Below, piece after piece: positions 4,234 through 53,907 of a DNA stretch of 59,184 nt. The stretch is from the NCBI GenBank assembly GCA_021794235.1, contig JAJYRE010000020.1, forward strand, positions 1 to 59,184, read 5' to 3'. The position numbers and the translations under genes were made by a program. Each line of letters starts with the position of its first letter. Position 1 is the first letter of the stretch. The notes beneath the pieces were generated by a model that did no database searches, was not told the origin of the DNA, and worked only from the letters and a program-made list of their open reading frames with translations. The DNA is from Nanobdellota archaeon (GTDB lineage Archaea > Nanobdellota > Nanobdellia > Parvarchaeales > Parvarchaeaceae).

Positions 4234-4587
4234 TCAAAATATTTCGCCCACGATTGAGGTGATTCCGCCCTTTAGGTTGTATGATTGTACTTTGGCTTTG
4301 TTCAGGTAGTTGACGACTGCTCCGGACGTGTTTCCGTGGTAACAGACAAATACAGCACCTTCCAGTTTCTTTGGGTCCTCAATCGACAACAACTGTCTGG
4401 GGTTTATACACATTATTTCATCGTTGCCGGCTTCTAGTGCATTTTTTGCTATGCTGAAGTGCGCCTCTGCGCCCACCCATACAAACTTTTTTCCGCTCTC
4501 CTTTACCATCTTTTTAGCGGCTTCTAAGCTTATGTCATTTTCCATCCGTATTATGCGGAAATATAACTTAAATAGTTTACCTTCCAT
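4234..4587 (-). CDS. rhodanese-like domain protein
   Basis: Active-site-loop-like VFVCYHGNTSGAVVNYL followed by YNLKGGI. The start may be Met15 (4545). Confidence 0.55.
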   Translation of the reverse strand: MEGKLFKLYFRIIRMENDISLEAAKKMVKESGKKFVWVGAEAHFSIAKNALEAGNDEIMCINPRQLLSIEDPKKLEGAVFVCYHGNTSGAVVNYLNKAKVQSYNLKGGITSIVGEIF

Positions 4588-4634
4588 CTACTCCAAATCA
4601 GTTAGTATTTAAACTACAGGATTCTTAAAACAAA

Positions 4635-5273
4635 ATGGCTGATGATGAGATCGATAAGTTTCGATCATCCCTGTCAAAGTTAATAACGGATTCTAACTTT
4701 AAGGACTCCGGCAACAGCGAGCTGGAGAGCAGAGTATTGAGAAGCGTACAGGATTTTGAATTCGGACTCGGGCGTAATAAATTCGAGAAACTTGCCAAGT
4801 CGTACGCCGATGACAGCAATTTTTTCAATCATGCATTCTCCTCGTATCTGACAGCCGTTACAAAGGAGATGAACAAATACAAACGATACGACGGCGATGA
4901 AAACGGATACAAACTTATACTTTCACAGGCATCGTTGAAAATGCTCGAGAGGGAGCTTTACCGTTCGAATTACAATACTGGTTCGTCCATGAAGTCACTC
5001 GACTATTCAAGAAAATTTGGTAAAAAATATCTGTACAAGACGGCTCTTAAGAGCCTTGAAAACGAAAACTTTGTCCAGAAGGTCAAGGTTGGCCATTATC
5101 TGCTACTTCTTTCAATAGCAATGGTAGCGTCGCTTCCACTTATAAAGGAGGGACTTAGAACTCCGAGCGTATACGCCGCTGAACTGGTCGGTAGCACGGA
5201 TATACTCCTGGCACTGAGCGGTGGGCTTCTGGCCTACTTTATAGGTTATGAAAACGGAAAGAGATCCAAATAA
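4635..5273 (+). CDS. hypothetical protein with C-terminal two-TM anchor
   Basis: 212 aa: a soluble charged N-terminal part, then HYLLLLSIAMVASLPLI and ILLALSGGLLAYFIGY hydrophobic spans. No recognisable family. Confidence 0.5.
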   Translation: MADDEIDKFRSSLSKLITDSNFKDSGNSELESRVLRSVQDFEFGLGRNKFEKLAKSYADDSNFFNHAFSSYLTAVTKEMNKYKRYDGDENGYKLILSQASLKMLERELYRSNYNTGSSMKSLDYSRKFGKKYLYKTALKSLENENFVQKVKVGHYLLLLSIAMVASLPLIKEGLRTPSVYAAELVGSTDILLALSGGLLAYFIGYENGKRSK

Positions 5274-5301
5274 CCAATACCATAAAAAATAAAACCGGAG
5301 T

Positions 5302-6051
5302 ATGCCATATACACTTATGGTACAAAAGATAACGGTAAAGTTTTCCAAGCCTGCACTTAGGTTCGGGCTGATAGTCCCTTCCTCAAATACAAACATGGAG
5401 ACCGAGCTTTGCAAGATGATGCCGGCAGATATATTCCTGCACTCGGACAGGATGCGCATGAGAAAGGTAAACGCAAAGGAACTGATTTCCATGGACAGGG
5501 AAGCAGAGAGGGCTGCGGTCTATCTTTCCGACGCTAAGGTAAATGTGATAGCCTACGGGTGCACCATCGCAGTCACAAGCAGAAAGCCGGGATATCACAG
5601 GACGGTAAGGAAAAAATTAGAGCTGGTTGCAAAGACTCCTGTTGTGGTTAGTGCGGAGGCTGTCCTGGACGCTATGTCTCACATGGGGATGAAGAGAATC
5701 GCCGTCGCAACGCCGTACACCAAGAGGATTACCGAGATGGAGATGGATTACTTCAGAAAATCCGGATTCGATATAACAGATTATAAATATCTTAGCGTTG
5801 AGGACAACGTTGCTGTAGGCAGAATAAGGGCGGGTACAGTCCTGGATCTTGTAAAGAGCCTGGACGTGGAAAACGCCGATGGAATACTGATAAGCTGCGC
5901 CGAACTTCCGAGCGTAGACACGATAAAAATGCTTGAAGATGAATCAGGGTTGCCTGTAATTTCAACAAATACCGCGACCATGTGGGCCATGATTAGGAGG
6001 CTGAACCTCCCTATTAAGATAGGCGGATACGGGCGTCTGCTGGAAGAATGA
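5302..6051 (+). CDS. Asp/Glu/hydantoin racemase superfamily protein (maleate isomerase / arylmalonate decarboxylase-like)
   Basis: GLIVPSSNTNMETEL near the N-terminus, with two Cys-containing loops (IAYGCTIAVTS and ILISCAELPS) in the positions of the paired catalytic cysteines of this superfamily. Confidence 0.65.
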   Translation: MPYTLMVQKITVKFSKPALRFGLIVPSSNTNMETELCKMMPADIFLHSDRMRMRKVNAKELISMDREAERAAVYLSDAKVNVIAYGCTIAVTSRKPGYHRTVRKKLELVAKTPVVVSAEAVLDAMSHMGMKRIAVATPYTKRITEMEMDYFRKSGFDITDYKYLSVEDNVAVGRIRAGTVLDLVKSLDVENADGILISCAELPSVDTIKMLEDESGLPVISTNTATMWAMIRRLNLPIKIGGYGRLLEE

Positions 6052-10288: not shown

Positions 10289-11068
10289 CTATCCGTCAAC
10301 GTGGTTCTCCTGCATCTTACTCTTTATGATCCTGAGTATTTTATCGGAAAAATCTTCGCTTCTTCCGTCGAGTTTTACAGCATTTACCTTTTTGTTTGAT
10401 AGCCTCACTCTGAACTTGCTACCTTTTCCAACGCTTGCTATCCCTATACCGTCGTAGCTGAGTTCACCCCTGCCTTTCTCTATCGAGACTTCTATCTGTT
10501 CGTTGCTCCTGAGGACCATGGAATTTGTGAGCGGGTTCTCTATCGACAGGAATGTAAGGCACAGTGTCTTATTGTCGAGGATTATCGGCCCGCCCGCGGT
10601 CCTGTTATACGCGGTGGATCCGACGTTCGTTGTTATCAGGAACCCGTCCCCGCTCAGGACATACGGATAAAGGCTTTTCAATTTTCCGTGCTCCCTATAA
10701 TTGAGCCTGAAGTATACCTCCTCCTGCACATTTCTTAGCAGTATCTCGTTTATCCCGAAGTATTTCTTGCCGTTGTAGGAGAGCCCGATTTTCTTGCTTA
10801 ATTCCTCCACTCTGTATCTCCGTTTTTTCAGGCTTTCAACTATAAAATCTATATCGTTCAGGCTCACATCGGCGTAGTAGCCCGTGCTCTGCTTCTCTTC
10901 ACTTCTTATCGGGAGTATAGGACAGTCAAAATCATTTGCTGCCTTTATGAACGTACCGTCTCCGCCTATGGCAAGGCATATGTCCCCCTTCTGTGAAACG
11001 TTGAATGCTCCATACAGCTTCTTGAGCTCTGGGTAATTTTTCTTAGAAACTATACTTATATTCAACAT
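10289..11068 (-). CDS. nadK: NAD+ kinase
   Basis: Intact GGDGT motif (AIGGDGTFIKAA) and C-terminal GSTAYNRTAGGPI motif. Last gene of the pncA-nadE-nadK same-strand string. Confidence 0.85.
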   Translation of the reverse strand: MLNISIVSKKNYPELKKLYGAFNVSQKGDICLAIGGDGTFIKAANDFDCPILPIRSEEKQSTGYYADVSLNDIDFIVESLKKRRYRVEELSKKIGLSYNGKKYFGINEILLRNVQEEVYFRLNYREHGKLKSLYPYVLSGDGFLITTNVGSTAYNRTAGGPIILDNKTLCLTFLSIENPLTNSMVLRSNEQIEVSIEKGRGELSYDGIGIASVGKGSKFRVRLSNKKVNAVKLDGRSEDFSDKILRIIKSKMQENHVDG

Positions 11069-11095: not shown

Positions 11096-11929
11096 TTACT
11101 TGAGGTCTATCACACCAGGTGAAGGCGGCAGGATATTCTTGTGCATGTTCCCGTTTTTCATGCCAAGCACCCTGTCTATAGTATCGGTTCCGAGTCCTGT
11201 TGCGGCGGCTATATCTTCTCTTGTTGTTTTCTTCCCATAGTCGTTCATATAGTAGAGTATCCTGTCTATGTCCTCGTACTTCATAGACATCTCATCCTCG
11301 GCCGTCTGCCCCTTCCAGAGCTGCGGAGAAGGCAGCTTTTCTGCGACTCTCCTGTACACGTCTTCTCCCGTCTTATCTGCTATGTGCATCAGCAATGCCC
11401 TTACCTGCGTTTTGTAAAGATATTCCGGTACGTTTATGTCCACTCCACCATCCCCGTATTTTGTGAAATAACCGAGCTCGTGCTCGCTCCTGTCATCGGT
11501 TCCGGCAACCAGTCCGCTTATCTTATTGGCCTCTTTGTATAGCAGGACCATCCTCAATCTGGCTTTCAGGTTGGCATAAGCGACCCTGTTTTCCTTTTCA
11601 GTTATTTCTTTGTCGCCACTGCACACTGCATCGAGCATCGCGGTTATATCCGTCCTGATAGTCTTTATACCAAGTATCCCGGCAAGCCCCTCGGCATCGC
11701 TTACGTCATCCGCGGGACTGGAATCTTTAGTCGGCATTATCAAACCAAGTACATTCTGCCCACCAAGGGCCATCGCACAGATATACGCTGTAAGTGTAGA
11801 GTCGCTCCCGCCAGAAAGGCCTATCACTGCTCTAGTCTTTCCTGCCTTTGCGAAGTATTCTTTTACCCACCCTATTCCGTATTCTACAGCCCTGTTGTAG
11901 TCTATCTTTATTTCATCCGGTACGTTCAT
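11096..11929 (-). CDS. nadE: NH3-dependent NAD+ synthetase
   Basis: PP-loop GLSGGSDST plus FTKYGDGG. Overlaps the stop of the upstream pncA by 4 nt. Confidence 0.9.
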   Translation of the reverse strand: MNVPDEIKIDYNRAVEYGIGWVKEYFAKAGKTRAVIGLSGGSDSTLTAYICAMALGGQNVLGLIMPTKDSSPADDVSDAEGLAGILGIKTIRTDITAMLDAVCSGDKEITEKENRVAYANLKARLRMVLLYKEANKISGLVAGTDDRSEHELGYFTKYGDGGVDINVPEYLYKTQVRALLMHIADKTGEDVYRRVAEKLPSPQLWKGQTAEDEMSMKYEDIDRILYYMNDYGKKTTREDIAAATGLGTDTIDRVLGMKNGNMHKNILPPSPGVIDLK

Positions 11930-12540
11930 AATCCCTCCATCGCATTTCCACTCGTGATTATTTCGGCGGAATAATTGTTTTTCATGTAATTTATCGCGTT
12001 TTTATGGCCTTCCAGTGTCACATCAGCCGTACAGTCTTCCACTATCTTCAAATTGTACCCTCTGAAGAAGGCATCCGCCGCAGTGTGTTTTACGCATATA
12101 CCTGTTACAAGACCTGCTATGTACACGTTTTTTACGCCAAAATCCTTCAGTATCCCGTCCAGATCAGTGTTATAGAACGCGCTGTACGCCCCCTTATCGA
12201 TTCTCAGTATCCCGGAAGCGTCACCGAGTTTATAGTCCAGTTTCTGGTTTCGTTTGACGGTTATCATGCCGTTCTGGGGAAGAGAATCCAATATTTCACT
12301 CTCTTCTGTGTCAGCCATGCAGTGATAATCCCATGGCCCGCCGTTTCTTTTTAGCTCTTTGTCCGTTTCTATGTGAGCATCAGTGCAGTATATCAGCGGC
12401 ACTCCTTTTTTCACGGCTGACTCCGTCAGTTTCTCAAGCCTGCCTATTATTCCGGCAGAGTTCCCGCAGTACATATTCTTGTTAGAACCTTCTTTTGCGA
12501 ATCCGTTTATAACATCTACGACAAGCAGTGCATTTTCCAT
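11926..12540 (-). CDS. pncA: nicotinamidase / isochorismatase-family hydrolase
   Basis: MENALLVVDVINGF, YCTDAH, and IAGLVTGICVKHTAADA with the catalytic Cys context. I prefer the start at 12540 because GGAGGT lies about 7 nt upstream. The longest ORF extends to 12576. Confidence 0.8.
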   Translation of the reverse strand: MENALLVVDVINGFAKEGSNKNMYCGNSAGIIGRLEKLTESAVKKGVPLIYCTDAHIETDKELKRNGGPWDYHCMADTEESEILDSLPQNGMITVKRNQKLDYKLGDASGILRIDKGAYSAFYNTDLDGILKDFGVKNVYIAGLVTGICVKHTAADAFFRGYNLKIVEDCTADVTLEGHKNAINYMKNNYSAEIITSGNAMEGL

Positions 12541-12601
12541 TTTTTTACCTCCATACCAGTCTGAATCAGCAATCAATTAAACAGGGTTTCGTACAGGAAA
12601 G

Positions 12602-12613
12602 AATTGCGCAATT
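12602..12613. promoter_or_regulatory. perfect 12-bp palindrome AATTGCGCAATT in the pncA/pncB divergent promoter (candidate operator)
   Basis: Self-complementary by inspection. It abuts/overlaps the TATA-like attatataaa (12611..12620) that faces the pncA-nadE-nadK string. Confidence 0.45.
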
Positions 12614-12679
12614 ATATAAATGAATACAAAAATTACCTGTTCAGTCAGTATAATAACGTTCCTCCTTTCATAATAGAAT

Positions 12680-14104
12680 ATGAAACAACTCGATTCATTG
12701 CTTGAAAGCGAAGACGAAAAATCTCTTTTTGCAGACTTTTACGAGCTGTCTAGCGGCAAAGCCAACTTCGACCATTCACGAAACGATGTGATAACCGAGA
12801 CATTTTTCTTCAGGAATATACCTGAGCACCTAGGGGGCTATATGGTGGCCGCCGGTCTGGAGCAGGTTGTTGAATTCATAAAGTCGTACCGCCTGACCGA
12901 ACAGGACGCAAAATGGCTGGGGGAGAGTTCGGACGGGGCGATAAGTGAAGGGTTTATCGACTATCTAAAGAACTTCAAATTCGACGGGGACGTCTACGCC
13001 GTACCTGAAGGCACCGTTGTTTTTCCGAATGAGCCGATACTCAGCATAACCGGCAAGTCGATAGACGTGCAGCTTTTTGAAACGTATCTGTTATCCGTCA
13101 TGAACTACGAGACGATGGTAGCCACGAAGGCGTCTAGAATAGCTTATTCTGCGAGGGGAAAACCGTTCCTTGACTTCGGGGCAAGAAGGGCGCACGGCAG
13201 AGATGCGGCATTGCTCAGCTCGAGAGCCTCTTACATAGGCGGTGCCGACGGAACCTCTTTGCTCGTTGCCGCAAAAAAGCTAGGCATACCGTATTCCGGG
13301 ACAATGCCGCACAAGTTCGTGCAGGAAAGAGACTCGGAGATAGAAGCATTCAGGGAGTATGCCGAATCGTTCCCGAACAGCTCTGTCATGCTCATAGACA
13401 CCTACAACACCCTGGAAGGAGCTAGAAAAGCGTGCGAGGTCGGAAGAGAGCTTAGGATGAGGGGATACGAACTCAAGGGCGTCAGGATAGACAGCGGAGA
13501 CCTTCTTGATCTGAGCAGAAAAGTCCGTACGATACTCGACGGCGAGGGTTTTGAAAACACGAAGATAATCGTAAGCAGCGACCTTGACGAGTTCAAGATA
13601 GACTATCTTATGTCAAACGGCGCACCTATAGACAGTTTTGGAGTCGGAACCAGATTGGATACCGCTGCAAATTACGATTCGTCAAGCGGCGAAGGAGGGG
13701 TCTCTGCGCTCGGCGGTGTATTCAAGCTAGTAGAAGTCCTGAAGGAGGGAGTTATGACCCCAAGGATGAAGATAAGCAGCGACGGCCACAAAAAAACGCT
13801 TCCATACAACAAACAGGTGTACAGGAGAATCGCTGACGGCAGGATTATCGGGGACACGATAGACAGGTATGGCAGCGGAGCGTATCAGGGGGCTTTGGAA
13901 ATGCTTAAGCCTATAATTATTAATGGTTCTTTGGTGTATGACTTTCCACTTCTCAAAGAGATACAGGTATACGCCAGGGCTCAGACAGAGTCACTGGGAG
14001 ACGAATACAAACTCCTTACAAACCCGGAAAAATTCCCGGTTACGGTGGGGAGGGAAGTCCTGGACGGTGAAGAAGCATTTCTTTCCAGGCTGTCTGCTAC
14101 TTAA
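12680..14104 (+). CDS. pncB: nicotinate phosphoribosyltransferase
   Basis: 474 aa. LFADFYELS, the FGARRAHG and GTMPHKFVQ segments, and DTYNT / VRIDSGD / FGVGT are typical of the archaeal/Gram-positive type NAPRTase. Confidence 0.9.
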   Translation: MKQLDSLLESEDEKSLFADFYELSSGKANFDHSRNDVITETFFFRNIPEHLGGYMVAAGLEQVVEFIKSYRLTEQDAKWLGESSDGAISEGFIDYLKNFKFDGDVYAVPEGTVVFPNEPILSITGKSIDVQLFETYLLSVMNYETMVATKASRIAYSARGKPFLDFGARRAHGRDAALLSSRASYIGGADGTSLLVAAKKLGIPYSGTMPHKFVQERDSEIEAFREYAESFPNSSVMLIDTYNTLEGARKACEVGRELRMRGYELKGVRIDSGDLLDLSRKVRTILDGEGFENTKIIVSSDLDEFKIDYLMSNGAPIDSFGVGTRLDTAANYDSSSGEGGVSALGGVFKLVEVLKEGVMTPRMKISSDGHKKTLPYNKQVYRRIADGRIIGDTIDRYGSGAYQGALEMLKPIIINGSLVYDFPLLKEIQVYARAQTESLGDEYKLLTNPEKFPVTVGREVLDGEEAFLSRLSAT

Positions 14105-15107
14105 GATGGTATATGCTGTATCTTGCGTCCTGCAATGATCTTCGTTCCTCTATTATGTCTTTTTTCTTCAGATAGGACAGTCCGTGTCTCACAGTTCTTG
14201 CCTGCAGCGAAGAGAGTCTCACGATGTCCTTCTGCGTGAGGGGTCCTTCATATTCCAATAGTTTTATTATGAACTTTGCGGACGGCGGAGCCTTATCAAC
14301 GTCATCTATCCGAATGTCCTGCCTTTTTTTCAGTTTTTCCACAGACGATCTGCTGAATTCCTTGAATACTACGAATCTGGCCGGTTCCTCATATTTTCTT
14401 ATGAGTATCTCGTTTCCCCTCAGCCTGCTTCTGAACCTTCCGTCGCTTATCAGTTCAACTCCGAATCCGGAGTTTATGTCCTTTATCTTTATCACGCTGT
14501 TCTCGGAGAAGACCATCGGCCTTGCCTGGGTCATCGATGATATGGGAGTCAGTGCTATGACTTTGGAATCGCTGGAGATTATCGGACCTCCGGCGGATGC
14601 TGAATATCCCGTAGAACCGTTGGGGGTCGATATTATTATTCCGTCCCCTGTATCGTTGATTATCTTAATTCCGTCGACAACGATGGAATAGGAGAGTATA
14701 GACGCGCTCCTTTTGGCTGCTATTACAAGATCGTTTAGTACCGGCGGAGTGGGTTTTTCATCCACTATAATCTCTATCCTGGAACGCTCCTCTACCTCGT
14801 ACTCCAGCTTCAGGATTTTCGGGAGCATGGTCTCAAACTGTTCGACTGTCAGTTCCGGCAGGAATTCATTCATGTATGCCGACACTCCGAGGACCGGTAC
14901 GCTTATTCCATCGAGTTCCCTGAAGGTTTTCAAGATGTTCGAGCTGCTTCCCACGGATATTACCATATCTGCATCGCCCTTTTGTACGCCATGAAGGTTG
15001 GTGGATGGCCTGGCTTTGTTGCCGCTGTTTTTAATCATCTTCAGAATACGTGTCACAGCTTTTGCGCTGCTCCTGTCTGAGCCGTCTCTGGCGACTATAA
15101 ATTTCAT
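14097..15107 (-). CDS. NAD-kinase-fold protein with degenerate GGDGT motif fused to a C-terminal winged-helix DNA-binding domain (putative regulator)
   Basis: It has GSTGYSASAGGPI (the NadK C-terminal motif) and ADMVISVGSSSNILKTF where NadK carries GGDGT. The C-terminal ~65 aa (FIIKLLEYEGPLTQKDIVRLSSLQARTVRHGLSYLKKKDIIEERR..YSIYHL) reads as a classic wHTH. The 3' end overlaps pncB convergently by 8 nt. Confidence 0.7.
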   Translation of the reverse strand: MKFIVARDGSDRSSAKAVTRILKMIKNSGNKARPSTNLHGVQKGDADMVISVGSSSNILKTFRELDGISVPVLGVSAYMNEFLPELTVEQFETMLPKILKLEYEVEERSRIEIIVDEKPTPPVLNDLVIAAKRSASILSYSIVVDGIKIINDTGDGIIISTPNGSTGYSASAGGPIISSDSKVIALTPISSMTQARPMVFSENSVIKIKDINSGFGVELISDGRFRSRLRGNEILIRKYEEPARFVVFKEFSRSSVEKLKKRQDIRIDDVDKAPPSAKFIIKLLEYEGPLTQKDIVRLSSLQARTVRHGLSYLKKKDIIEERRSLQDARYSIYHLK

Positions 15108-15190
15108 AGGATTATCTATCCACCTTCCAATAAAAACTTGTGAAGTGACACGAATGGTTTTTATATATCCACTGTTCTATCATCTTTAAT

Positions 15191-16642
15191 ATGTCGGCTA
15201 TGGATTCGGGTAAGGATTACGGGCTGGATCCGTTGTATGTGGCCAAAAAGGATGTGGAAGAAGCCATATCCGCCACGAGAAGCGATGAAAAGCTTACCTC
15301 CCTCGGGAAAAGGAAAGGACTGAGGCTCGATAATATTCTTGAAAATAAGGTCGAAATAGACGGGGACTATCTGAGAGTGTCATCAAAATACGATACGTCG
15401 GATTACAGCAGGGATATTGTGTCGCTTGTCAGGGCAATGGAAAGCGTCAGGCAGTTTTCTATAACCCCCTACCCAAATTCCAAGCTTGAAATCTCATATT
15501 CCGGTGATGAGGCTTACAATCTACGTTTTTCCGATAGCAAGAGCAACAGGCTCTTTTCCATGCATATATCGAAATACTCCCAATATTCAGGCAACATGGA
15601 CAAGATTAGCCTTTATACTACAATGGAAAAGGAGTTTGCATCACGACCGGGTTATGCTAAGGAGTTTTACTCCCTCATCTCAAAAGAAGTCGTTATGGAC
15701 GGGTTGGAAAAGACATACGCAAACCTTGTGGTCGAGAATGAAGAGGATGACGATGATGATGAAGGCGGAGAACACACCCTGGAGGAGATACTGGAGAACT
15801 TTGGTCTTACAGTATACAGCGGTAACACCTCCATAAACAACATAGGCGGATACCACGATGTAAAGAGCAGGGTCGAACGTGAGATATTCACCCCATTCAT
15901 ACACGGTGATATGATAAAGGAGCTCAGAGAACTTACCAGACTGGATAAAAAGAACGACACAAGCGGTGCGATATTCTACGGGCCGCCGGGAACCGGTAAA
16001 ACCATGATGGCAAGGGCGATAGCACACGACAATGACGTAAACTTCATATACATGAGCATCTCGAAAATATACTCGCACTGGTACGGCGCTTCTTCCAAGA
16101 GAATGGAGATGGCCCTGGATCTCGTCAACACCTATGCAAAAAAGAACGGGAAGACCGTACTGTTCATAGATGAAATAGATTCGCTGGGAAACAGGCAGTC
16201 CAATTACAGCGGCGAGAGCAATAAGGTTATAAATTCGCTTCTTACAAGGCTGAGCGGCGTAAAGTCTGCCGAGAACTCGGACCTGATGTTTATAGCCTGC
16301 ACCAATCTTCTGGATCAGATTGATCAGGCCCTGCTTTCAAGGTTCAAGACAAGGATATACTTCAGAGCACCGAACAAGGATGATAGACGATCCATAATAG
16401 CAACCTACGCAAAGACATTAAACAGCGAGGAAATGGAGAGATTCGCGGCAAAGACCGAAGGCCTGACAGGGAGGGACATAGAGGCGATAGCATCCATCGC
16501 CGAAGAGAACCATATATTTGACATAGCCGGGGCGAAGATGCCGCTGACTGCACCGGATATCAGCGATTACATAAAGGCGGCTGAACTATTCACATCGAGT
16601 GCAAAAGAGGCTAACGCGAAGTCAAGCGGACTTTACAGTTGA
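15191..16642 (+). CDS. AAA+ ATPase (classic clade, single AAA module) with novel N-terminal domain
   Basis: Walker A FYGPPGTGKTMMARAIA, Walker B VLFIDEIDS, second region of homology TNLLDQIDQALLSRF. An acidic linker EEDDDDDEGGE separates an unassigned ~200-aa N-domain. Confidence 0.85.
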   Translation: MSAMDSGKDYGLDPLYVAKKDVEEAISATRSDEKLTSLGKRKGLRLDNILENKVEIDGDYLRVSSKYDTSDYSRDIVSLVRAMESVRQFSITPYPNSKLEISYSGDEAYNLRFSDSKSNRLFSMHISKYSQYSGNMDKISLYTTMEKEFASRPGYAKEFYSLISKEVVMDGLEKTYANLVVENEEDDDDDEGGEHTLEEILENFGLTVYSGNTSINNIGGYHDVKSRVEREIFTPFIHGDMIKELRELTRLDKKNDTSGAIFYGPPGTGKTMMARAIAHDNDVNFIYMSISKIYSHWYGASSKRMEMALDLVNTYAKKNGKTVLFIDEIDSLGNRQSNYSGESNKVINSLLTRLSGVKSAENSDLMFIACTNLLDQIDQALLSRFKTRIYFRAPNKDDRRSIIATYAKTLNSEEMERFAAKTEGLTGRDIEAIASIAEENHIFDIAGAKMPLTAPDISDYIKAAELFTSSAKEANAKSSGLYS

Positions 16643-25593: not shown

Positions 25594-26199
25594 TCACTTT
25601 GAGATACTATTAACTATCTCTTTTGTGTCAAGAACATCAAACAGCATCTTCATATTCTCCAGAGAGCGTTCATGTGCCTCTTTGTTCCTGCTGGAAGAGG
25701 CATCCGCAGCTACGACCGTATAAAATCCCCTATTCAGGGAGTCTCTAGCGGTAGATTCGACTCCTATCTCCGTAGCTATCCCTGCGATGATAAGAGACTC
25801 GATTCCGGCATTCCTTGCCATAAGTTCAAAATTTGTACCAATGAATATACTGGCAGTGTTTTTGTTAAGAACAGTCTCCCCTTCTTTTGGCTCTATCGCC
25901 AGGTCTAGCATCTCTTTAGGAATCTGAGACATATTGAATTTCATCCTGCTGGAAAAATATTTTCTCGCCGGCGATTCAAACTCCTGCGGTAGCGGAGTTA
26001 TTTTGGTGAAGAACACAGGCATTCCTACTTCCCTCGCCTTAGAGATCAAGAAACCGAGGTTTGAAAGGAATTCCTCCTTGTTGAATATGCCGTCTACAAG
26101 CATCTTCTGCACGTCCCATACTATGAGAGCTGTGTGGTCAGGATTTACTACCTCCTTTATATCAGAATAAACTTTTCTTTCCATAGCATAATCTTTCAT
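25594..26199 (-). CDS. isochorismatase-family cysteine hydrolase
   Basis: TALIVWDVQKML, FFTKI, and IIAGIATEIGVESTARD. I trimmed the ORF (it extends to 26268) to Met24, because the divergent MFS gene starts only 17 nt from the longest start and TATA-like sequence lies inside the extension. Confidence 0.75.
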   Translation of the reverse strand: MKDYAMERKVYSDIKEVVNPDHTALIVWDVQKMLVDGIFNKEEFLSNLGFLISKAREVGMPVFFTKITPLPQEFESPARKYFSSRMKFNMSQIPKEMLDLAIEPKEGETVLNKNTASIFIGTNFELMARNAGIESLIIAGIATEIGVESTARDSLNRGFYTVVAADASSSRNKEAHERSLENMKMLFDVLDTKEIVNSISK

Positions 26200-26285
26200 A
26201 TATCCATTAAATATCTTCCGTTTTATAGAACCATTAATTTTAAAAATTTTTATGTCGTAGTAATTCAAATGGTTACGCTTAGTGG

Positions 26286-35725: not shown

Positions 35726-36277
35726 TCAGCGAATTTCATCTTTTGAAGCATATCTCGCGACAGAATATACGTCGTATCCATTAAGATCCTCTCTTCCGTG
35801 CATGTACTCCAGTTCCGCAACAAAAGCCACTCCTACGATATCCCCCTTTAACTCACCAATTATCCTCGTGGCAGCGGAGGCGGTCCCGCCGGTCGCCAGG
35901 GTATCGTCCACTATCAGAACGCGTTCACCCTCCTTTATGCTGTCCCTGTGCATTTCGAGCGTGGCAGTTCCGTACTCCAGGGAAAATGTCTCGCTTATCT
36001 TCTCACCCGGTAGTTTTCCGGCTTTTCTTGCCAGGACGAATCCAGCGCCCAGCTCGTAAGCCACCTGTGATCCGGTTATAAACCCCCTCGCCTCTATCCC
36101 GACTACCTTATCTACGTTCCTGCCCCTGTACACGTCGGCTATATTCTTTGCGGTTAGTTTCATAAGTTCCGGATCCATCCAGATTGTGGTAAGATCCAGG
36201 AAATTCACGCCCTTAGTCGGGAAATCGTGTACTATTCTGATGTTCCTCTTTATCATGTCTGAAATTTCGTCGGTCAT
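35726..36277 (-). CDS. apt: adenine phosphoribosyltransferase
   Basis: PRPP-binding loop VLIVDDTLATGGTA, plus FPTKGVNFLD and GIEARGF. Confidence 0.9.
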   Translation of the reverse strand: MTDEISDMIKRNIRIVHDFPTKGVNFLDLTTIWMDPELMKLTAKNIADVYRGRNVDKVVGIEARGFITGSQVAYELGAGFVLARKAGKLPGEKISETFSLEYGTATLEMHRDSIKEGERVLIVDDTLATGGTASAATRIIGELKGDIVGVAFVAELEYMHGREDLNGYDVYSVARYASKDEIR

Positions 36278-37164
36278 AGGATCTTCTTCAGCGCTTCGGC
36301 AATGAGGGGTGACACGTCTATAGTCTCAGAATACTTGCACGGGACGGTGTTTGTCCCCACCACCCTCGAAATCCCGCTTTCAACCATCCGTTTGTATGTC
36401 TCTTCACTTATCAGGAGGTGGGACGCTGCTACCGCGATATCCCCGGCGCCGTTGAGCTTCGCGAATTTTGCCGCCTGTATGACGGTGTTCCCCGTGCTCA
36501 CTATGTCGTCGATTATCAGTACGTCCCTTCCCTCAAAACGGAAGTTCTGCTCGCCGACCAGTCTGACCTCTCCTGTTTTCCTGTCCCTCTCCTTCTCCAG
36601 CTGTGTAAACTGTACTTTCAGGACCGATGCGATGTCCATCGCCTTTGAAAGTGCACCCTTATCAGGAGCGAGTACAACCATGTCCTTCGATCTTTTTCCA
36701 AACAATTCGGCAAAAAGACTGATTGGATCGACTATCGCGTAGTTGCCGTTGAACGATTTTATTGATTCCTGCCTGTGAGGATCGACAGTGACGATAGCAT
36801 CGGCTTCTTCACTGCGCAGCATCCTTAAAATGACTTCGATGCTTATCGGTTCCCCCGGCAAAAACCTCTTGTTCTGTCTCGAATAAGCAAGATAGGGCAT
36901 CACTAACACAATACTGCCTGGCCTGTACCCCTTTACCGCGTCCATAGTGAGGATAAGTTCGATTATATGTTTGTCCTGTGGAGGATATAACGACTGTACT
37001 ATAACCGCCGTCTTATCGGAAACATCCACCGGCACGCGTATGTATGATTCCCCGTCCGGCAGCGTTCTTGATTCTACCTTTACCAGAGGGACATTGAGGA
37101 TTTCGGCTACGCCATCGGCTATTCCATTGGTTGCCGTGCAGGCCACAACGACTACGTTGTCCAT
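36274..37164 (-). CDS. prs: ribose-phosphate pyrophosphokinase
   Basis: Prs motifs: DGESYIRV, MPYLAYSRQ, TVDPH, DVLIIDDIVSTGNT. I trimmed the start to Met55 (MDNVVVVAC). A TATA-like tttaata lies about 22 nt upstream on this strand, and the longer ORF (to 37326) would run through the neighbouring divergent promoter. Confidence 0.85.
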   Translation of the reverse strand: MDNVVVVACTATNGIADGVAEILNVPLVKVESRTLPDGESYIRVPVDVSDKTAVIVQSLYPPQDKHIIELILTMDAVKGYRPGSIVLVMPYLAYSRQNKRFLPGEPISIEVILRMLRSEEADAIVTVDPHRQESIKSFNGNYAIVDPISLFAELFGKRSKDMVVLAPDKGALSKAMDIASVLKVQFTQLEKERDRKTGEVRLVGEQNFRFEGRDVLIIDDIVSTGNTVIQAAKFAKLNGAGDIAVAASHLLISEETYKRMVESGISRVVGTNTVPCKYSETIDVSPLIAEALKKIL

Positions 37165-37223
37165 ACCATTAGTAGGATCTTGGCTATTAAATCGGTTTTT
37201 TGGGTCCATAGCAGACAGGTTTG

Positions 37224-37232
37224 TTTTATATA
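37224..37232 (+). promoter_or_regulatory. TATA box of the pilin-signal surface protein gene
   Basis: ttttatata, 24 nt upstream of the ATG at 37256. Confidence 0.55.
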
Positions 37233-37255
37233 GAAAAAATTCTATAACTGGTATA

Positions 37256-39343
37256 ATGGTGGTCAGAACACAGTCTGCACTGGAATATATGATGACGTAC
37301 GGCTGGGCCATACTTGTAATTGTCATAGTCGCAGCTGCACTTTACGAGATGGGAATATTCAATCCGAATAACAGTCTTACTGAGGGATATACGGGATTTT
37401 CAAGCATGCCAATCCTAGGGCAGGTGTGTCTTTCAAACATCGGTTTGTTTGTATTCGTTGGAAATTCGGTGGGAAACGTTATAACCATAACGTCTGTTAA
37501 TGTTACGCTTCAGAACGGTTCCACTGTATCGGATAATCTGGACCTGACGGTGAGTCCGGACAGCGATATCCTGATTCCTATCCTCGGCGGGTGTCAAAAC
37601 AATGGAAATACAAACTATCATATATCTGCTACAGTAAACTATTATCTCACTGGATTACCGCTCAGGCAGAGCGGTTCCGCCACGGGGGTATTATACGGGG
37701 AAGTAACACAGAATATAAATAACGCACCGGCAGCTGTCAGGTCTCTTTTCTCGGTATCCTACGCGTTTGCAACGCCGTATATAGGTGTTCCGTTCCAGAC
37801 GCAGGAGTACTATGCAAATGGCGTCTTTATAGGCAAGGTGGCTTCCGCATTCCCTACACCGCTCAGCGATCTTAACAATGGATATATACAGTGCGGCAAG
37901 CCGTACAACACACAGGGTTATACGGCTGTTTCTGATGTGTACCTGACCAACGATTCGAGCTTTGAGATTCTCACCAACGACGGTACAACAGTCTTCTACA
38001 GGCCGGTATCCGGGGGCCCCTGGACGAGCGTATTCGGAAGTCAGGCATGGAAAGGTAATTCGGCGGGCCATTTCGGGCCTACGACCGTGCATCTGGCATC
38101 GGGCGAGTACGAGGTCGCGGTCGACTGGATAAACATATGCAGTGGAGGGGTAAGTGCTATAGACGTAAAGGGCGGCCTTCCGGCTTCTAACTACTGGAAC
38201 GTAACTGTCTGGACTCCGAAGGACAACCAGGTCGATCTGCTTTCGTATCAGAATGTGACTTTTAATCCGGCTTATCCGGCAAATATATCGGTAGAGCAGA
38301 TCGGAAACTGGAGCAGTAAGCTGTCGGTGGACAGCTGCAACTCGAATAATTTCTGTACAACCATATTTGACGCATTCAACCTCCCTGCAAACACATCGTG
38401 GTGGGTGGACTACGCGGGCTCGAACGTGACAACAAAATCCAACTTTATATCTTTTACGGTTTCCAACGGAAACTACTCCTACCAGCTTGCCGAGCCGGCA
38501 GTAAACTCCAGCGGCTGCGTAAACAAGTACACCACAGCTACGTCCGGAAACCTTGCATCCGGATCCTCCTTACCTATATTCTACAGTCAATCGGAGAACT
38601 GCTATACTACGCTCAAAGAGAACAACCTGCCGAGCGGGGCACAATGGTCTGCGTCTATAAACGGCGTTCAGGATACGGCTTATTCGTCAAATAATCTGAC
38701 TTTTCAGAACAGCCCGGGTTCCTACTCCATCTCTATACCCAATGTAGTCTATTCGGGTGTGACATACCTTCCGTGCCCTTCATCAGGATACATAGCCGCC
38801 GGAACCTACGTTCAGATAAACTTTTCGACATCCTCATGCGGCTACGGCCTCGCTACTTTTGGGGAAGCGGGTCTGCCGTACGGCCTTAACTGGAGTGTTA
38901 ATTACAGCGGCGACCTCAAGGCCACAAATTCCTCAGCAGTCACACTCGTTGAGCCGTCCGGCTCCCATACATTTACTGTCCCGTATCCTACGCTGGCTTT
39001 TCTGCATACCGGCTGCACCATAAATTACACTGCTAACAGCGTTACCGGCACCCTTTCGACCGGGAGCCTCAGCACCATAAGCTTTTCAAAGTCGTACAAT
39101 TGCACTTCCGAGTTTATCGCGCACGGCCTGCCAGCCGGAGCCCAATGGAATGCAAATTATTCGGATATACTGAAATCATCTAGCGTGTCCAGCATTAACT
39201 TCAGCACTACGCTTGAGGCCGCACAGTTCGGGATACCCACCGTTGCGTACGGTGGCAGCACATATTATCCCTGCCCGAACAATGGGACTCTTCCGAGTGG
39301 AAGTCTGCAAAATATATATTATGCAACAGTACAGAAGTGCTAG
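37256..39343 (+). CDS. surface protein with class III (archaeal type IV pilin-like) signal peptide and C-terminal GLPxGxxW repeat modules
   Basis: MVVRTQSALEYMMTYGWAILVIVIVAAALY is the archaeal prepilin-type N-terminus. The TATA ttttatata at 37224..37232 is 24 nt upstream of this ATG. Four ~80-aa C-terminal modules begin NLPANTSWWV, NLPSGAQWSA, GLPYGLNWSV and GLPAGAQWNA. Confidence 0.75.
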   Translation: MVVRTQSALEYMMTYGWAILVIVIVAAALYEMGIFNPNNSLTEGYTGFSSMPILGQVCLSNIGLFVFVGNSVGNVITITSVNVTLQNGSTVSDNLDLTVSPDSDILIPILGGCQNNGNTNYHISATVNYYLTGLPLRQSGSATGVLYGEVTQNINNAPAAVRSLFSVSYAFATPYIGVPFQTQEYYANGVFIGKVASAFPTPLSDLNNGYIQCGKPYNTQGYTAVSDVYLTNDSSFEILTNDGTTVFYRPVSGGPWTSVFGSQAWKGNSAGHFGPTTVHLASGEYEVAVDWINICSGGVSAIDVKGGLPASNYWNVTVWTPKDNQVDLLSYQNVTFNPAYPANISVEQIGNWSSKLSVDSCNSNNFCTTIFDAFNLPANTSWWVDYAGSNVTTKSNFISFTVSNGNYSYQLAEPAVNSSGCVNKYTTATSGNLASGSSLPIFYSQSENCYTTLKENNLPSGAQWSASINGVQDTAYSSNNLTFQNSPGSYSISIPNVVYSGVTYLPCPSSGYIAAGTYVQINFSTSSCGYGLATFGEAGLPYGLNWSVNYSGDLKATNSSAVTLVEPSGSHTFTVPYPTLAFLHTGCTINYTANSVTGTLSTGSLSTISFSKSYNCTSEFIAHGLPAGAQWNANYSDILKSSSVSSINFSTTLEAAQFGIPTVAYGGSTYYPCPNNGTLPSGSLQNIYYATVQKC

Positions 39344-40623: not shown

Positions 40624-40667
40624 GATGTTATCTTAAGGCTTAAAACTATGGACTGGCATTTATTGCC

Positions 40668-41225
40668 ATGGCAGACGAGCCGCAGGAAACAATCAAGAAT
40701 ATACTCAATGCCACCGAGATAAGCCTGATACTGGATACCTATGACGATATATTCTCCGACTTTGACCCCCGCCCGTACAACGAACGCTCCCTTTCCGAGG
40801 ACTTTCTCGCGGAGGCAAAGCGCGCTGCGAGGGATAAAGGTGTCAACCTGGAGCTGCGTTTTTTGGTCCCGAACAGCGCCAGAAACACGCAGCAGGAGGA
40901 GCGCATAAAGCACAGGCTGAGGGCCCATTTCAAGAGCCATTACAACCAGATAACTGGTGAGATAGCAGCGTACAGAAAGCAGGCGATGATACTGATTATT
41001 ATAGGTACGATCATAGGCCTTGTAGAGGCGTTCATACTGTCTTCATCGAACTCCTTCGGACTCGACACTTTGTTCACCGGCCTGGGAATAGTGCTTACGC
41101 CCGCCAGCTGGTTCAGCATATGGACTGGCGTTGAACATCTTGTGTACACTCCCAAGGATATGATTTCCGACGAAGCATTCTACAAGAAGATGGAAACCGT
41201 GAAGATAACCTTTACCTCCTATTAA
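40668..41225 (+). CDS. hypothetical membrane protein (soluble N-domain plus 2 C-terminal TM)
   Basis: 185 aa. TM spans MILIIIGTIIGLVEAFIL and GLGIVLTPASWFSIW. No family recognised. Confidence 0.5.
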   Translation: MADEPQETIKNILNATEISLILDTYDDIFSDFDPRPYNERSLSEDFLAEAKRAARDKGVNLELRFLVPNSARNTQQEERIKHRLRAHFKSHYNQITGEIAAYRKQAMILIIIGTIIGLVEAFILSSSNSFGLDTLFTGLGIVLTPASWFSIWTGVEHLVYTPKDMISDEAFYKKMETVKITFTSY

Positions 41226-50973: not shown

Positions 50974-51828
50974 ATGAGGATAGAAATACCTACACTAGTA
51001 AAATGGGCAGGAGGGAAGAAGCAGCTACTTAACCAGTTTGATAAATTTTTCCCAAAAAAAATAGATAGATATATCGAACCGTTTCTTGGCGGCGGTGCAG
51101 TGGCATTCTACATAATAAAACGTTTCCATCCAAAAAATGTATTCTTATCCGATATAAATGAGGAACTGGTGAATGCGTATAAAGCAGTCCAACTTAATGT
51201 TCCTGAACTCATAGAAGCTTTGTCTTTATTAGCAAAAAAACACAGCAAAGAGTTCTATTATAAAATAAGGGCACAGGATCCACAAAAATTATCTGATGTA
51301 GATAGAGCTGCTAGACTTATCTATCTTAACAAAACTTGTTTCAACGGTCTTTATCGCGTTAATTCGGAGGGTAAGTTTAATGTACCTATTGGTGAGCACA
51401 AACATTTGCAGATAGTAGACACGAAAGATTTAATGGAGATAAATCATCTCCTAAAACATGCAATTATAAAAACTATGCCATTTGAGAAGGTATTAGACTT
51501 TGCTAAAAAGGGAGATTTTATTTATCTCGATCCTCCATATTATCCTTTGAAAGAAGGTAAAAGCTTTACTAAATACCACAAGGGAGACTTTTCAAAGATT
51601 GACCAGGAGAGACTAAAAAGTATATTTGACAAATTGACTAAACGCGGTTGCAAAGCTATGTTAAGTAATAGCGACGCTCCTTTTATTCGTGATTTGTACA
51701 AAGAGTACTCCATACAGATAGTACAAGCAAGAAGAATGATTAACTGTGATGCAACTAAACGTGGCAAAATAAATGAAGTTGTTGTAACAAACTATAAGCC
51801 AATCTATCAAAAAACACTCATCGATTAA
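50974..51828 (+). CDS. Dam-family (D12 class, alpha) N6-adenine DNA methyltransferase
   Basis: VKWAGGKKQLL, SAM motif EPFLGGGAV, NKTCFNGLYRVN, and catalytic IYLDPPY near the C-terminal third. Confidence 0.9.
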   Translation: MRIEIPTLVKWAGGKKQLLNQFDKFFPKKIDRYIEPFLGGGAVAFYIIKRFHPKNVFLSDINEELVNAYKAVQLNVPELIEALSLLAKKHSKEFYYKIRAQDPQKLSDVDRAARLIYLNKTCFNGLYRVNSEGKFNVPIGEHKHLQIVDTKDLMEINHLLKHAIIKTMPFEKVLDFAKKGDFIYLDPPYYPLKEGKSFTKYHKGDFSKIDQERLKSIFDKLTKRGCKAMLSNSDAPFIRDLYKEYSIQIVQARRMINCDATKRGKINEVVVTNYKPIYQKTLID

Positions 51829-52358
51829 CGACCATTATGTGTAGCGCTAGATACTATTGGAAAGATATCTTCCTTATTGTATAGTGCATTTAAGACTCCT
51901 TTGAACATAAACGCACCCTGATATCCATTTTTCTCTTCCATTGTCAATAACTCCATAACAGTCGCAAGAAATTCTACAGAATATTGACCATATGCATTTA
52001 ACTTTTTAAACCTCTTTAATTTCTTTTTAGTGGCAAAATGCAGTCTACATTCCCGCTGTTCTCTCTTGTTTCTAAAGGGTTTTATCTTATCATATGAATC
52101 TAGCAGGTATTTTATGAATTCTAGAGTAAGTTTTTTATTATGTTCCTTTTTTAACAGTAAATCTATAACCCAATGAATGTGTTTAGGGGTCCTAACCACA
52201 AAATCTCTTGTATTTCTATCCCTATACTTAATAACTATGTCTAGAGCCGGATTCTTACCACGATCGCCTTGAAAAATGCCGATTACCTCACCCTGTGCTA
52301 AATGAAACTCTTTGAAAGCGGAAATACGGGGTCTTCCTTTTGGCTTCCATTCCATCAA
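51825..52358 (-). CDS. hypothetical protein; candidate cognate restriction endonuclease of the Dam-like MTase
   Basis: 177-aa ORF convergent with the MTase, with 3' ends overlapping by 4 nt. It has the same low G+C as the MTase. I could identify no nuclease motif, so the functional call is purely positional. Confidence 0.35.
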   Translation of the reverse strand: MMEWKPKGRPRISAFKEFHLAQGEVIGIFQGDRGKNPALDIVIKYRDRNTRDFVVRTPKHIHWVIDLLLKKEHNKKLTLEFIKYLLDSYDKIKPFRNKREQRECRLHFATKKKLKRFKKLNAYGQYSVEFLATVMELLTMEEKNGYQGAFMFKGVLNALYNKEDIFPIVSSATHNGR

Positions 52359-52496
52359 AATAAATGGTATTTTAACTTTTAATATGCATAATTAGTAAAT
52401 AAGCTATTAAAATAGATACACTAACTTTTTGTTGGTATTGGTATCATTATTCAATCGTTCAAAAAAGCTTAAATTCTTCGATTTTATCATCATAAA

Positions 52497-53537: not shown

Positions 53538-53892
53538 ACTAACTAAATCACAAAGAAGTTATAATATGTCCAGAATCAGATCCAGGGACACCTCAATTGA
53601 GGTTAAACTAAAACCGCTGATGAAAAGTCTAGGTTTTACTTACCATACAACAATATATGGTCACCCAGATTTCGCTAATAAAAAGCAAAAAATAGCCGTT
53701 TTTGTAGATGGATGTTTCTGGCACGGATGCAAAAAACATTACAAAACGCCAAAAAGCAATGTGACATTCTGGAAGACAAAGATAGCTGCAAATATTAAGA
53801 GGGACAGAATAGTAAATAATCGTCTTAAAAAAGAGGGGTGGCGCGTTATTCGGGTATGGGAACACAAAATCCGTAGTAATTTAAATAAATAG
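53527..53892 (+). CDS. vsr: very short patch repair endonuclease
   Basis: SQRSYNMSRIRSRDTSIEVKL, GHPDFANKKQKIAVFVDGCFWHGC, and GWRVIRVWEH. Overlaps dcm by 11 nt. Confidence 0.9.
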   Translation: MVDKLTKSQRSYNMSRIRSRDTSIEVKLKPLMKSLGFTYHTTIYGHPDFANKKQKIAVFVDGCFWHGCKKHYKTPKSNVTFWKTKIAANIKRDRIVNNRLKKEGWRVIRVWEHKIRSNLNK

Positions 53893-53907
53893 CTGCTATA
53901 GATTAAA

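Follow-up and report, generated by a model that had tools for sequence, protein, structure and literature searches.

The 59,184-nucleotide contig JAJYRE010000020.1 of a Nanobdellota archaeon, the whole of which is called the window here and supplies the coordinates, carries a gene whose product joins a NAD kinase (NadK) fold to a C-terminal winged helix-turn-helix (wHTH) domain. This fusion gene lies among genes of NAD metabolism, and we consider it likely that its product is a transcription factor of that metabolism, in which a non-catalytic NadK fold senses NAD(P) and which acts on NAD genes through a conserved palindrome. Within this proposal, the ligand (NAD or NADP), the binding to DNA and the sign of the control (repression) are what we infer. 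Loci fetched from relatives are designated L002 to L174. The genes of the cluster and the functional parts of the fusion are as follows.

14097..15107, minus strand: NadK-fold/wHTH fusion gene, predicted transcription factor of NAD metabolism (336 residues, ATG start; open reading frame [ORF], Pfam, AlphaFold and Foldseek)
14937..14954, minus strand: VGSSSN at the position of the catalytic GGDG(T/N) motif, residues 52-57 (gap-free HMMER alignment, tabulation of the family column)
14583..14618, minus strand: region II core GSTGYSASAGGP, residues 164-175 (invariant in the 30-sequence family alignment)
14373..14738, minus strand: NAD_kinase C-terminal, NAD-binding domain, residues 124-245 (Pfam NAD_kinase_C, 3.9e-20, over the gathering score)
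14100..14294, minus strand: MarR/TrmB-type wHTH, residues 272-336 (AlphaFold secondary structure, profile matches, Pfam matches of homologs)
12680..14104, plus strand: pncB, nicotinate phosphoribosyltransferase, predicted regulon member (Pfam NAPRTase_N, NAPRTase and NAPRTase_C)
11926..12576, minus strand: pncA, nicotinamidase of the isochorismatase family, first gene of the predicted target operon (Pfam Isochorismatase, 5e-36)
11096..11929, minus strand: nadE, NAD synthetase, second operon gene (Pfam NAD_synthase, 1e-65)
10289..11068, minus strand: short nadK with an intact GGDGT, third operon gene (sequence, Pfam and NCBIfam NadK matches)

An earlier note on this DNA had described the 336-residue protein as keeping the C-terminal motif of NadK while reading VGSSSN where the catalytic GGDGT should stand, and both observations hold. 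In addition to the C-terminal domain, the N-terminal NAD_kinase domain of Pfam was found at residues 7-103 (4.5e-8, over the gathering score), and residues 45-252 aligned to bacterial and archaeal NadKs in a phmmer search of the PDB. In HMMER alignments to the NadKs of Yersinia and Salmonella (4hao and 2an1), the stretch visVGSSSNil pairs gap-free with avvVGGDGNmL. GGDG has become GSSS, with the catalytic Asp replaced by Ser55 and the second Gly gone too. In NADK the Asp of GGDG is the catalytic center and touches the 2'-OH to be phosphorylated, the NE/D motif serves adenine and ribose recognition, and the T and Y of conserved region II serve adenine and nicotinamide recognition (PMC9763689). 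The NE/D motif is kept in the fusion protein as LNDLVI (N125-D126) and region II, which is intact, as GSTGYSASAGGPI (residues 164-176), including T166 and Y168; the same domain also carries D152 and D155-G156.

The modeled structure fits this reading of the alignments. Given a 30-sequence alignment, AlphaFold produced a model with a pLDDT of 88.1 and a pTM of 0.72 (a single-sequence model, pLDDT 39, was discarded); the top PDB matches of the former in Foldseek were all NadK structures, with E values of about 1e-26 to 1e-22 and target-normalized TM scores of 0.8-0.85 (for 1u0t, 6e-26 and 0.82). The NCBIfam equivalog cut-offs for NadK were not reached, the best being NF002984 with 136.5 bits versus the 326 required. 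Neither Pfam nor Foldseek found a Nudix domain in the protein, which places it outside the NrtR family. Judged by catalytic motif and equivalog score, the fusion protein is one that retains the NadK fold and is excluded from the NAD kinase enzyme family. Canonical NadKs (NadK/PpnK, EC 2.7.1.23; Pfam PF01513 and PF20143; 1u0t, 1suw, 4hao and 7qvs) share with it the two-domain fold, the NE/D motif and the region II pattern GSTxYxxSAGGP; the fusion differs in having GSSS for GGDG and an extra 65-80 residues that form the wHTH.

The C-terminal segment of about 65 residues, also taken for a wHTH by the earlier note, follows a lower-confidence linker in the AlphaFold model and consists of helices at 275-287, 292-299 and 303-315 and strands at 319-323 and 331-335 (block pLDDT 80-89). 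This order of three helices and two strands indicates a winged helix-turn-helix, with a putative recognition helix at about residues 303-315 (RTVRHGLSYLKK) and a wing bearing QDAR. Foldseek with the whole model returns NadK matches only and is uninformative on this domain, which was judged by profile searches. Taken alone, the window protein gave sub-threshold matches to the Pfam families MarR, MarR_2 and TrmB (E 0.001-0.02; 18.2 bits versus a cut-off of 24.6 for MarR, 19.2 versus 27 for MarR_2). A profile of the wHTH alone matched AdcR of the MarR family in the PDB (1.4e-4), then helix-turn-helix (HTH) domains of the Lrp/AsnC type and TFE, and among 13 homologous wHTH domains 11 matched MarR (best 2.8e-7) and 10 matched TrmB and MarR_2. 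From the model and these profiles, the C terminus is a wHTH of the MarR/TrmB type. It shares its topology with regulators such as AdcR (3tgn), whose KDAR aligns with the DAR of the fusion wing. In contrast to MarR proteins it is minimal: the full MarR architecture is absent, the approximately 65 residues after the NadK body lacking the N- and C-terminal dimerization helices, so that dimerization would come from the NadK body.

A homolog search with the fusion protein returned 1,460 proteins, the best 120 of which were nearly all 330-350 residues long with the same NadK and wHTH architecture. The named sources were Parvarchaeota, Nanoarchaeota, Nitrososphaerales, Aigarchaeota, Thermoprotei and Njordarchaeum, and a genome scan added fusions of Thorarchaeota and Heimdallarchaeum; this GTDB scan, run with the full-length alignment, was dominated by the generic NadK pattern, true fusions accounting for 3 of 80 loci. 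Intact full-length fusion ORFs were found in hundreds of clusters across archaeal phyla, and many members carry the pipeline name "NAD(+)/NADH kinase". On this point the picture in the earlier note is corrected: the fusion is no rarity of a single genome and belongs to a large family of DPANN, Asgard and TACK archaea that is not uniformly devoid of the Asp.

An alignment of 30 diverse fusions showed about 30 invariant residues, in the NAD pocket (N125, D152, D155-G156, T161-P162, G164-S165, Y168 and G173-G174-P175), further on (D222-G223 and R226) and in the wHTH (P274, S276, L284, G288, R304, T305, R307, L313, D327 and R329). Of the GGDG in motif I, the first Gly alone is invariant, and across the family the motif reads GGDGD, GGDRx, GEDRD, GDDxx, GDNxF, GSDxx, GTDSD, GDTGT, GESPT or GGAAT; in the clade of the window it is GSSF, GNSF or GSSS, with the Asp gone throughout. 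By this alignment, constraint acts on the nucleotide pocket and on the DNA-binding module and not on the phosphoryl-transfer loop. In the first set of loci, all 25 members linked to NAD genes had lost the intact GGD, about half of them lacking the Asp as well, and 43 of the 60 unlinked members had kept it, as those of thaumarchaeal type mostly do. By its sequences the family is thus not uniformly degenerate: many members retain the Asp and the thaumarchaeal ones retain GGD. Some of the members with GGD or the Asp may be bifunctional or plain kinases, and the thaumarchaeal ones may be housekeeping NadKs with a tail, or bifunctional.

In the window, the fusion gene is convergent with pncB, the 3' ends overlapping by 8 bp (14097..14104), and it lies near the string pncA-nadE-nadK. 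This tail-to-tail arrangement had been reported before, and the Pfam matches of the neighbors bear it out. The convergent overlap is kept within the closest clade (11 bp in L081, 11007..11017). The mechanically called pncA frame begins at TTG 12576; a GGAGGT Shine-Dalgarno sequence precedes ATG 12540, and pncA homologs begin at the equivalent Met (MENALLVVD). The true start is therefore probably ATG 12540, which makes the true intergenic region about 139 bp long (12541..12679). The short NadK, described as canonical in the earlier note, bears GGDGTF and GSTAYNRTAGGPI and is presumed from its sequence to be the real NAD kinase of the organism. Its family is narrow, with 317 matches from the named sources Parvarchaeota, Micrarchaeota and Marsarchaeota only, and its Pfam scores are weak, the N-terminal domain falling under the threshold. 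Between genomes, its identity is 63-74 % versus 50-55 % for the fusion.

A survey of synteny, which the earlier note had called for, showed association with NAD genes in many lineages: the fusion adjoins such genes in at least eight, usually in divergent or convergent orientation, and the linked genes differ by lineage between salvage (pncB, pncA, nadE, nadM) and de novo synthesis (nadA, nadB, nadC). The order of the window, with the fusion, a convergent pncB and a divergent pncA-nadE-(prs)-nadK, recurs in relatives at 52 % and 46 % identity, and the cluster as such was seen at 46-55 % protein identity. DPANN-type members at 37-41 % stand beside pncB, pncA and nadE, or beside nadM, a phosphoribosyltransferase (PRT) gene of about 400 codons, pncA, nadE and a short nadK; in L097 a gene for a NadB-like flavoprotein lies beside the fusion. 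The 403-residue PRT of Njordarchaeum (L172) scored 452 bits versus a cut-off of 243 for the NCBIfam nicotinate phosphoribosyltransferase equivalog, and those of L090, L097, L112 and L123, also of about 400 residues, gave a Pfam QRPTase/NAPRTase match or a BLAST match to the L090 PRT. These four are taken, on sequence similarity, as the same archaeal PncB type.

Adding the de novo genes to the reference set at a later stage revealed further linked lineages. Divergent from the fusion lie nadC-nadA in Heimdallarchaeum aukensis and in Nanoarchaeota, nadA and nadC in L150/L158, and nadA in Thorarchaeota and in the P0043 clade; in a very GC-rich clade nadA is directly downstream of the fusion, and in Njordarchaeum PncB is two genes away. 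The window and L081, L084, L090, L112 and L113 each have a separate GGDGT NadK within the cluster. The divergent or convergent orientation, this separate NadK, the degenerate catalytic loop and the DNA-binding domain together point to a regulator rather than a pathway enzyme.

The intergenic DNA at 12577..12679, which the earlier note had singled out for binding experiments, contains a candidate operator with a consensus conserved across phyla. Motif discovery started from five loci with no other intergenic similarity in common; comparing their DNA between the divergent pncB and pncA, or nadM and PRT, genes exposed the element GG-N-AATTTTT-N-CA. A weight matrix from these five loci was run on both strands of the remaining loci, approximately 650 kb. 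In this held-out test, the two best matches were the NAD promoters of L097 and L112, and further matches lay before the PRT gene in L093, in the nadA-fusion gap of Heimdallarchaeum, and before the fusion and pncB in L116. Distant lineages show that the element is a palindrome, GGCAA-N3-TTGCC. Perfect copies were found in the nadA-fusion gap of Thorarchaeota (GGCAACATTTGCC), in the GC-rich L108, 64 bp before nadA (GGCAATTCTTGCC), and upstream of the PRT gene in L123 (GGCAAATTTTGCC), and palindromes with one mismatch upstream of nadA in Heimdallarchaeum, L150 and L102.

A set of 63 non-redundant loci (569,812 bp) contained 30 sites that depart from the core at one position or none, versus 10.6 in shuffled sequences. 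The promoter zone, defined as the 300 bp upstream of a NAD gene or of the fusion gene, makes up 5.3 % of this sequence and holds 13 of the 30 sites, a density 13.6-fold that of the rest (binomial P 1.4e-9, a figure that partly reuses the loci that defined the motif). Of the four perfect sites, three precede a NAD gene. A prospective test was made on four loci fetched after the motif had been defined, and in all four a perfect or one-mismatch site was present in the predicted intergenic region (GGCAAAATTTGCC in L173, GGCAAATTTTGCC in L172, GGCAATAATTGCC in L171 and GGCAAAAATTTCC in L174), where about 0.025 sites were expected (Poisson P 1.7e-8).

The layout of the divergent promoter region of the window is as follows.

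12648..12656, plus strand: TATA-like box GTATAATAA of pncB (read from the sequence, promoter role presumed)
12625..12637, minus strand: candidate operator site 1, GGTAATTTTTGTA, DPANN variant of GGCAA-N3-TTGCC (sequence; 13-mer shared with L093)
12612..12620, minus strand: TATA-like box TTTATATAA of pncA-nadE-nadK, between sites 1 and 2 (read from the sequence, promoter role presumed)
12596..12608, no strand assigned: candidate operator site 2, GGAAAGAATTGCG on the plus and CGCAATTCTTTCC on the minus strand (sequence; two mismatches to the core)

Site 1 is directly upstream of the TATA box of the pncA operon and 11 bp upstream of that of pncB, and it is the only match in the window with at most two mismatches to AGGYAATTTTTGCAC. 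L093 has the identical 13-mer 42 bp before its PRT gene, and equivalents occur in every NAD-linked locus. Site 2 is 29 bp from site 1, center to center, between the TATA box and the presumed start of pncA transcription. The TATA-like box about 28 nucleotides before the pncB ATG suggests a leaderless pncB mRNA. Elsewhere among DPANN loci, and also in L114/L115 and L174, site 1 is followed in the same way by a TATA-like box and another site or right half-site; the second site or half-site (TTTTGCC) is 29-35 bp from site 1 in L081, L089, L090, L093, L097, L112, L114 and L174.

The palindrome also stands directly upstream of the fusion gene itself in L116, L114, L115, L117, L171, L002, L173 and L174. 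In L114/L115 (around 5050..5090), L117 (5083) and L116 (3130), the fusion is preceded at a distance of 78-150 bp by one or two core sites, which suggests autoregulation in some lineages. L114, L115 and L117 form a hot-spring-type clade with the motif I GDDKT, and among the unlinked thaumarchaeal-type loci convincing sites before the fusion were found in this clade only. In L171, of Thermoprotei, a transporter gene of the major facilitator superfamily, of the aromatic-acid/H+ symporter type (4583..6001; TIGR00895, 275 bits, below the cut-off), is divergent from the fusion, with the perfect GGCAATAATTGCC in the 113-bp spacer. The gene may encode a NiaP-like transporter of nicotinate that is controlled in the same way.

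NadKs are oligomers with the NAD site at the subunit interface, and MarR-type regulators bind palindromes as dimers. The fusion protein would oligomerize through its NadK body, as a dimer or tetramer as in NadKs, and NAD+ (or NADP+) bound in the retained pocket would determine how the paired winged helices are placed relative to each other. With ligand bound, the oligomer would occupy both sites around the TATA box and shut out TBP, TFB and RNA polymerase, with the outcome that pncB and pncA-nadE-nadK would be repressed when NAD(P) is plentiful. NAD kinase activity would be supplied by the short GGDGT enzyme of the regulated operon. End-product repression is the reading we prefer, by analogy with NadR, NiaR and NrtR, and a role as activator is kept as an alternative because several sites lie upstream of the position of the TFB recognition element (BRE) and TATA box. 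The earlier note had suggested a new ligand-sensing repressor family; the fold, the wHTH, the synteny and the palindrome speak for it, and the ligand, the binding to DNA and the repressor sign are the parts that we infer.

Several observations weigh against a role in NAD regulation as proposed. The sites of the window are degenerate, departing from the symmetric core at three (site 1) and two (site 2) positions, and at three mismatches there is no enrichment across the window (4 sites versus 3.4 expected). No autoregulatory site was found before the fusion gene in the window (15108..15190 searched). The enrichment statistics share loci with the motif definition, leaving the held-out and prospective tests as the independent ones, and the frequent placement of sites upstream of the BRE/TATA position would fit an activator too. 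The fusions of Nitrososphaerales and Aigarchaeota have unrelated housekeeping neighbors, with no linkage to NAD genes and no nearby sites. Position 326, in the wing, is Gln in the window protein and Arg in nearly all relatives. Moreover, the invariant RT.R and DAR residues are, by sequence, a signature of the wHTH module and no proof of a shared operator, and another protein with the same module may in principle be the binder of the palindrome.

This last point follows from the occurrence of the module outside the fusion, a correction to the picture in the earlier note. In an exhaustive profile search (456 representatives at E up to 1e-10), this type of wHTH turned up both by itself, in genuine stand-alone archaeal proteins of 75-125 residues, and joined to rhodanese or other domains (P0246-P0388, e.g., P0294, P0303, P0307, P0377 and P0291); 79 of the 148 top representatives begin with Met. 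An argument from an invariant recognition helix to one conserved operator was dropped, the same residues being present in these stand-alone proteins. The same wHTH was also seen at the N terminus of a rhodanese-domain protein (P0377, 366 residues) and of the 684-residue P0291. The shared signature reads LPPSAK..YEG.LTQ..RT.RY.L..DARQ.Y, and several of its carriers look haloarchaeal.

The strongest competitor is that the fusion binds NAD(P) and its winged helix does not act on the NAD genes, the palindrome belonging to another factor or to the promoter itself and the wHTH serving protein contacts, general nucleoid association or another regulon. We regard this as improbable. It draws on the generic nature of the module, which occurs alone and in other fusions, on the failure of the window protein to reach the Pfam threshold of any HTH family, and on the thaumarchaeal members without linkage or sites; the DPANN variant also has a promoter-like, AT-rich center and always faces the same way with respect to the pncA/PRT operon. 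In a GC-rich genome, however, the perfect palindrome GGCAATTCTTGCC cannot be explained as common AT-rich promoter DNA, and the palindrome persists while the neighboring NAD genes switch between salvage and de novo synthesis. The fusion is moreover the sole HTH-containing gene found consistently at these loci, the palindrome directly precedes it in eight of them, and the region has no Rfam match.

Less probable still, and very unlikely in our view, is that the fusion remains an active or bifunctional kinase of NAD, NADH or another nucleotide, with another residue catalyzing and the winged helix as an accessory, as in BirA, NadR and RbkR. The entire NadK fold and the NAD-binding residues are kept, many members are annotated as kinases, the relatives with GGDG, GGDR or GGDK may be active, and a position among NAD genes is also expected of a pathway enzyme. 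However, the Asp that is the catalytic center of NADK (PMC9763689) is Ser in the fusion and gone throughout the window's clade, together with the second Gly; a separate and better conserved GGDGT NadK stands in the same cluster here and in relatives; the equivalog score is 136 versus 326 bits; and the fusion is typically divergent from or convergent with the NAD genes and not co-transcribed with them. That the fusion is a decaying, functionless nadK duplicate would agree with the loss of the catalytic motif and with its faster evolution compared with the short NadK, and it is effectively excluded by conservation: hundreds of clusters from different archaeal phyla contain intact ORFs of the same architecture, the invariant residues number about 30 and include those of the NAD pocket and the wHTH, and the position of the gene is conserved.

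A NAD-metabolism regulator thus remains the preferred reading for the fusion of the window. Its extension to the whole family is offered tentatively: the NadK-wHTH protein could be the main regulator of NAD homeostasis in Asgard, DPANN and part of TACK archaea, acting through one ancient operator, with the transition from enzyme to regulator preserved at several stages. Under the same tentative scheme, the thaumarchaeal proteins that retain GGD would be kinases with a DNA-binding tail, possibly bifunctional, and members with the Asp alone would be intermediates. At least four independent losses of the Asp would have produced pure NAD(P) sensors, each accompanied by a separate kinase, the window's clade having Ser in place of the Asp, the GC-rich clade Asn, Heimdallarchaeum Thr and other lineages Ala or Ser.

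To our knowledge, the transcription regulators described for NAD metabolism (NadR, NiaR and NrtR) are all bacterial. The literature searched holds no description of a NadK-fold regulator or of an archaeal NAD regulon factor, in line with the earlier note, although most subscription journals were not covered, so that this is no proof. The functionally closest known system, by analogy, is NrtR, the Nudix-related transcriptional regulator of bacterial NAD metabolism (PMC2330246). Like the fusion, NrtR has an effector domain of enzymatic origin joined to a winged helix at the C terminus, is misannotated as an enzyme and lies beside NAD genes, and it uses palindromic operators in NAD promoters with a regulon that varies by lineage between de novo synthesis and salvage, as predicted for the fusion (PMC2330246). 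It differs in its Nudix fold, its ADP-ribose effector and its bacterial distribution, and has no sequence relationship to the fusion.

NadR of enterobacteria and NiaR/YrxA of Firmicutes and Thermotogales are repressors of the NAD pathway that sense a pathway metabolite (PMC2330245). NadR resembles the fusion in being built from NAD-pathway enzyme domains and differs in its N-terminal HTH and its active NMN adenylyltransferase and ribosylnicotinamide kinase domains; NiaR consists of an HTH and a niacin-sensing 3H domain. Both are bacterial and of unrelated fold. RbkR (PMC5397151, as cited in PMC8305020) is an archaeal regulator that joins riboflavin kinase to a wHTH. As a cofactor-pathway kinase fused to a winged helix, it is the nearest archaeal precedent, with another fold and another pathway. 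RbkR is reported to be bifunctional, with an active CTP-dependent riboflavin kinase. The ROK repressors Mlc and NagC likewise use a kinase fold as ligand sensor together with a wHTH; the repressors are without catalysis and the kinase members of the family are active. Unlike the fusion, the ROK family has a sugar-kinase (ASKHA) fold and an N-terminal HTH, is bacterial and acts in sugar metabolism. The fusion family is best described as belonging with the enzyme-derived regulators of cofactor pathways (NrtR, NadR and RbkR), of which the NadK-fold version is apparently undescribed.

Other features of the surroundings were noted. Divergent from the fusion gene lies a gene for a 483-residue AAA+ ATPase (15191..16642), which has an N-terminal region of about 240 residues without a family match and is not kept in related loci. 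A gene for ribose-phosphate pyrophosphokinase (prs, 36274..37326) lies 21 kb away; in L084 prs is inside a pncA-nadE-prs-nadK operon. A second paralog of the isochorismatase family (25594..26268) is 27 % identical to PncA. Core-like sites at 25807 and 33723, inside ORFs, and at 40655, abutting an unrelated ORF, are probably due to chance. The last of these (40655..40667, GGCATTTATTGCC, one mismatch) is the best core match in the window and stands directly upstream of the ATG of a 185-residue ORF (40668..41225) with a weak Phage_Gene33 match only. An RNA element upstream of pncA was considered and rejected, an Rfam search of 12300..12900 with E values up to 10 giving only two chance matches to snoRNAs, and no Rfam family was found over the whole window at gathering scores. 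Finally, a low-GC island (50974..55560; GC 0.31-0.35 versus about 0.46 elsewhere in the window) encodes a Dam-like D12 adenine methyltransferase (50974..51828), a C-5 cytosine methyltransferase (52497..53537) and a protein with HATPase_c_3 and Hypoth_Ymh domains (53908..55560), and is probably a horizontally acquired restriction-modification or defense island.

If the proposed role is true, the fusion family would give Asgard, DPANN and some TACK archaea the NAD regulator so far lacking there, along with a defined operator sequence, and would correct the widespread misnaming of its members as "NAD(+)/NADH kinase" or "sugar kinase". The NAD kinase fold would join the few enzyme folds recruited as ligand sensors of transcription factors, and the family would offer a natural series for studying the conversion of an essential enzyme into a regulator. 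In DPANN archaea, with their reduced metabolism, niacin salvage may be the controlled entry point for a cofactor that is perhaps derived from the host.

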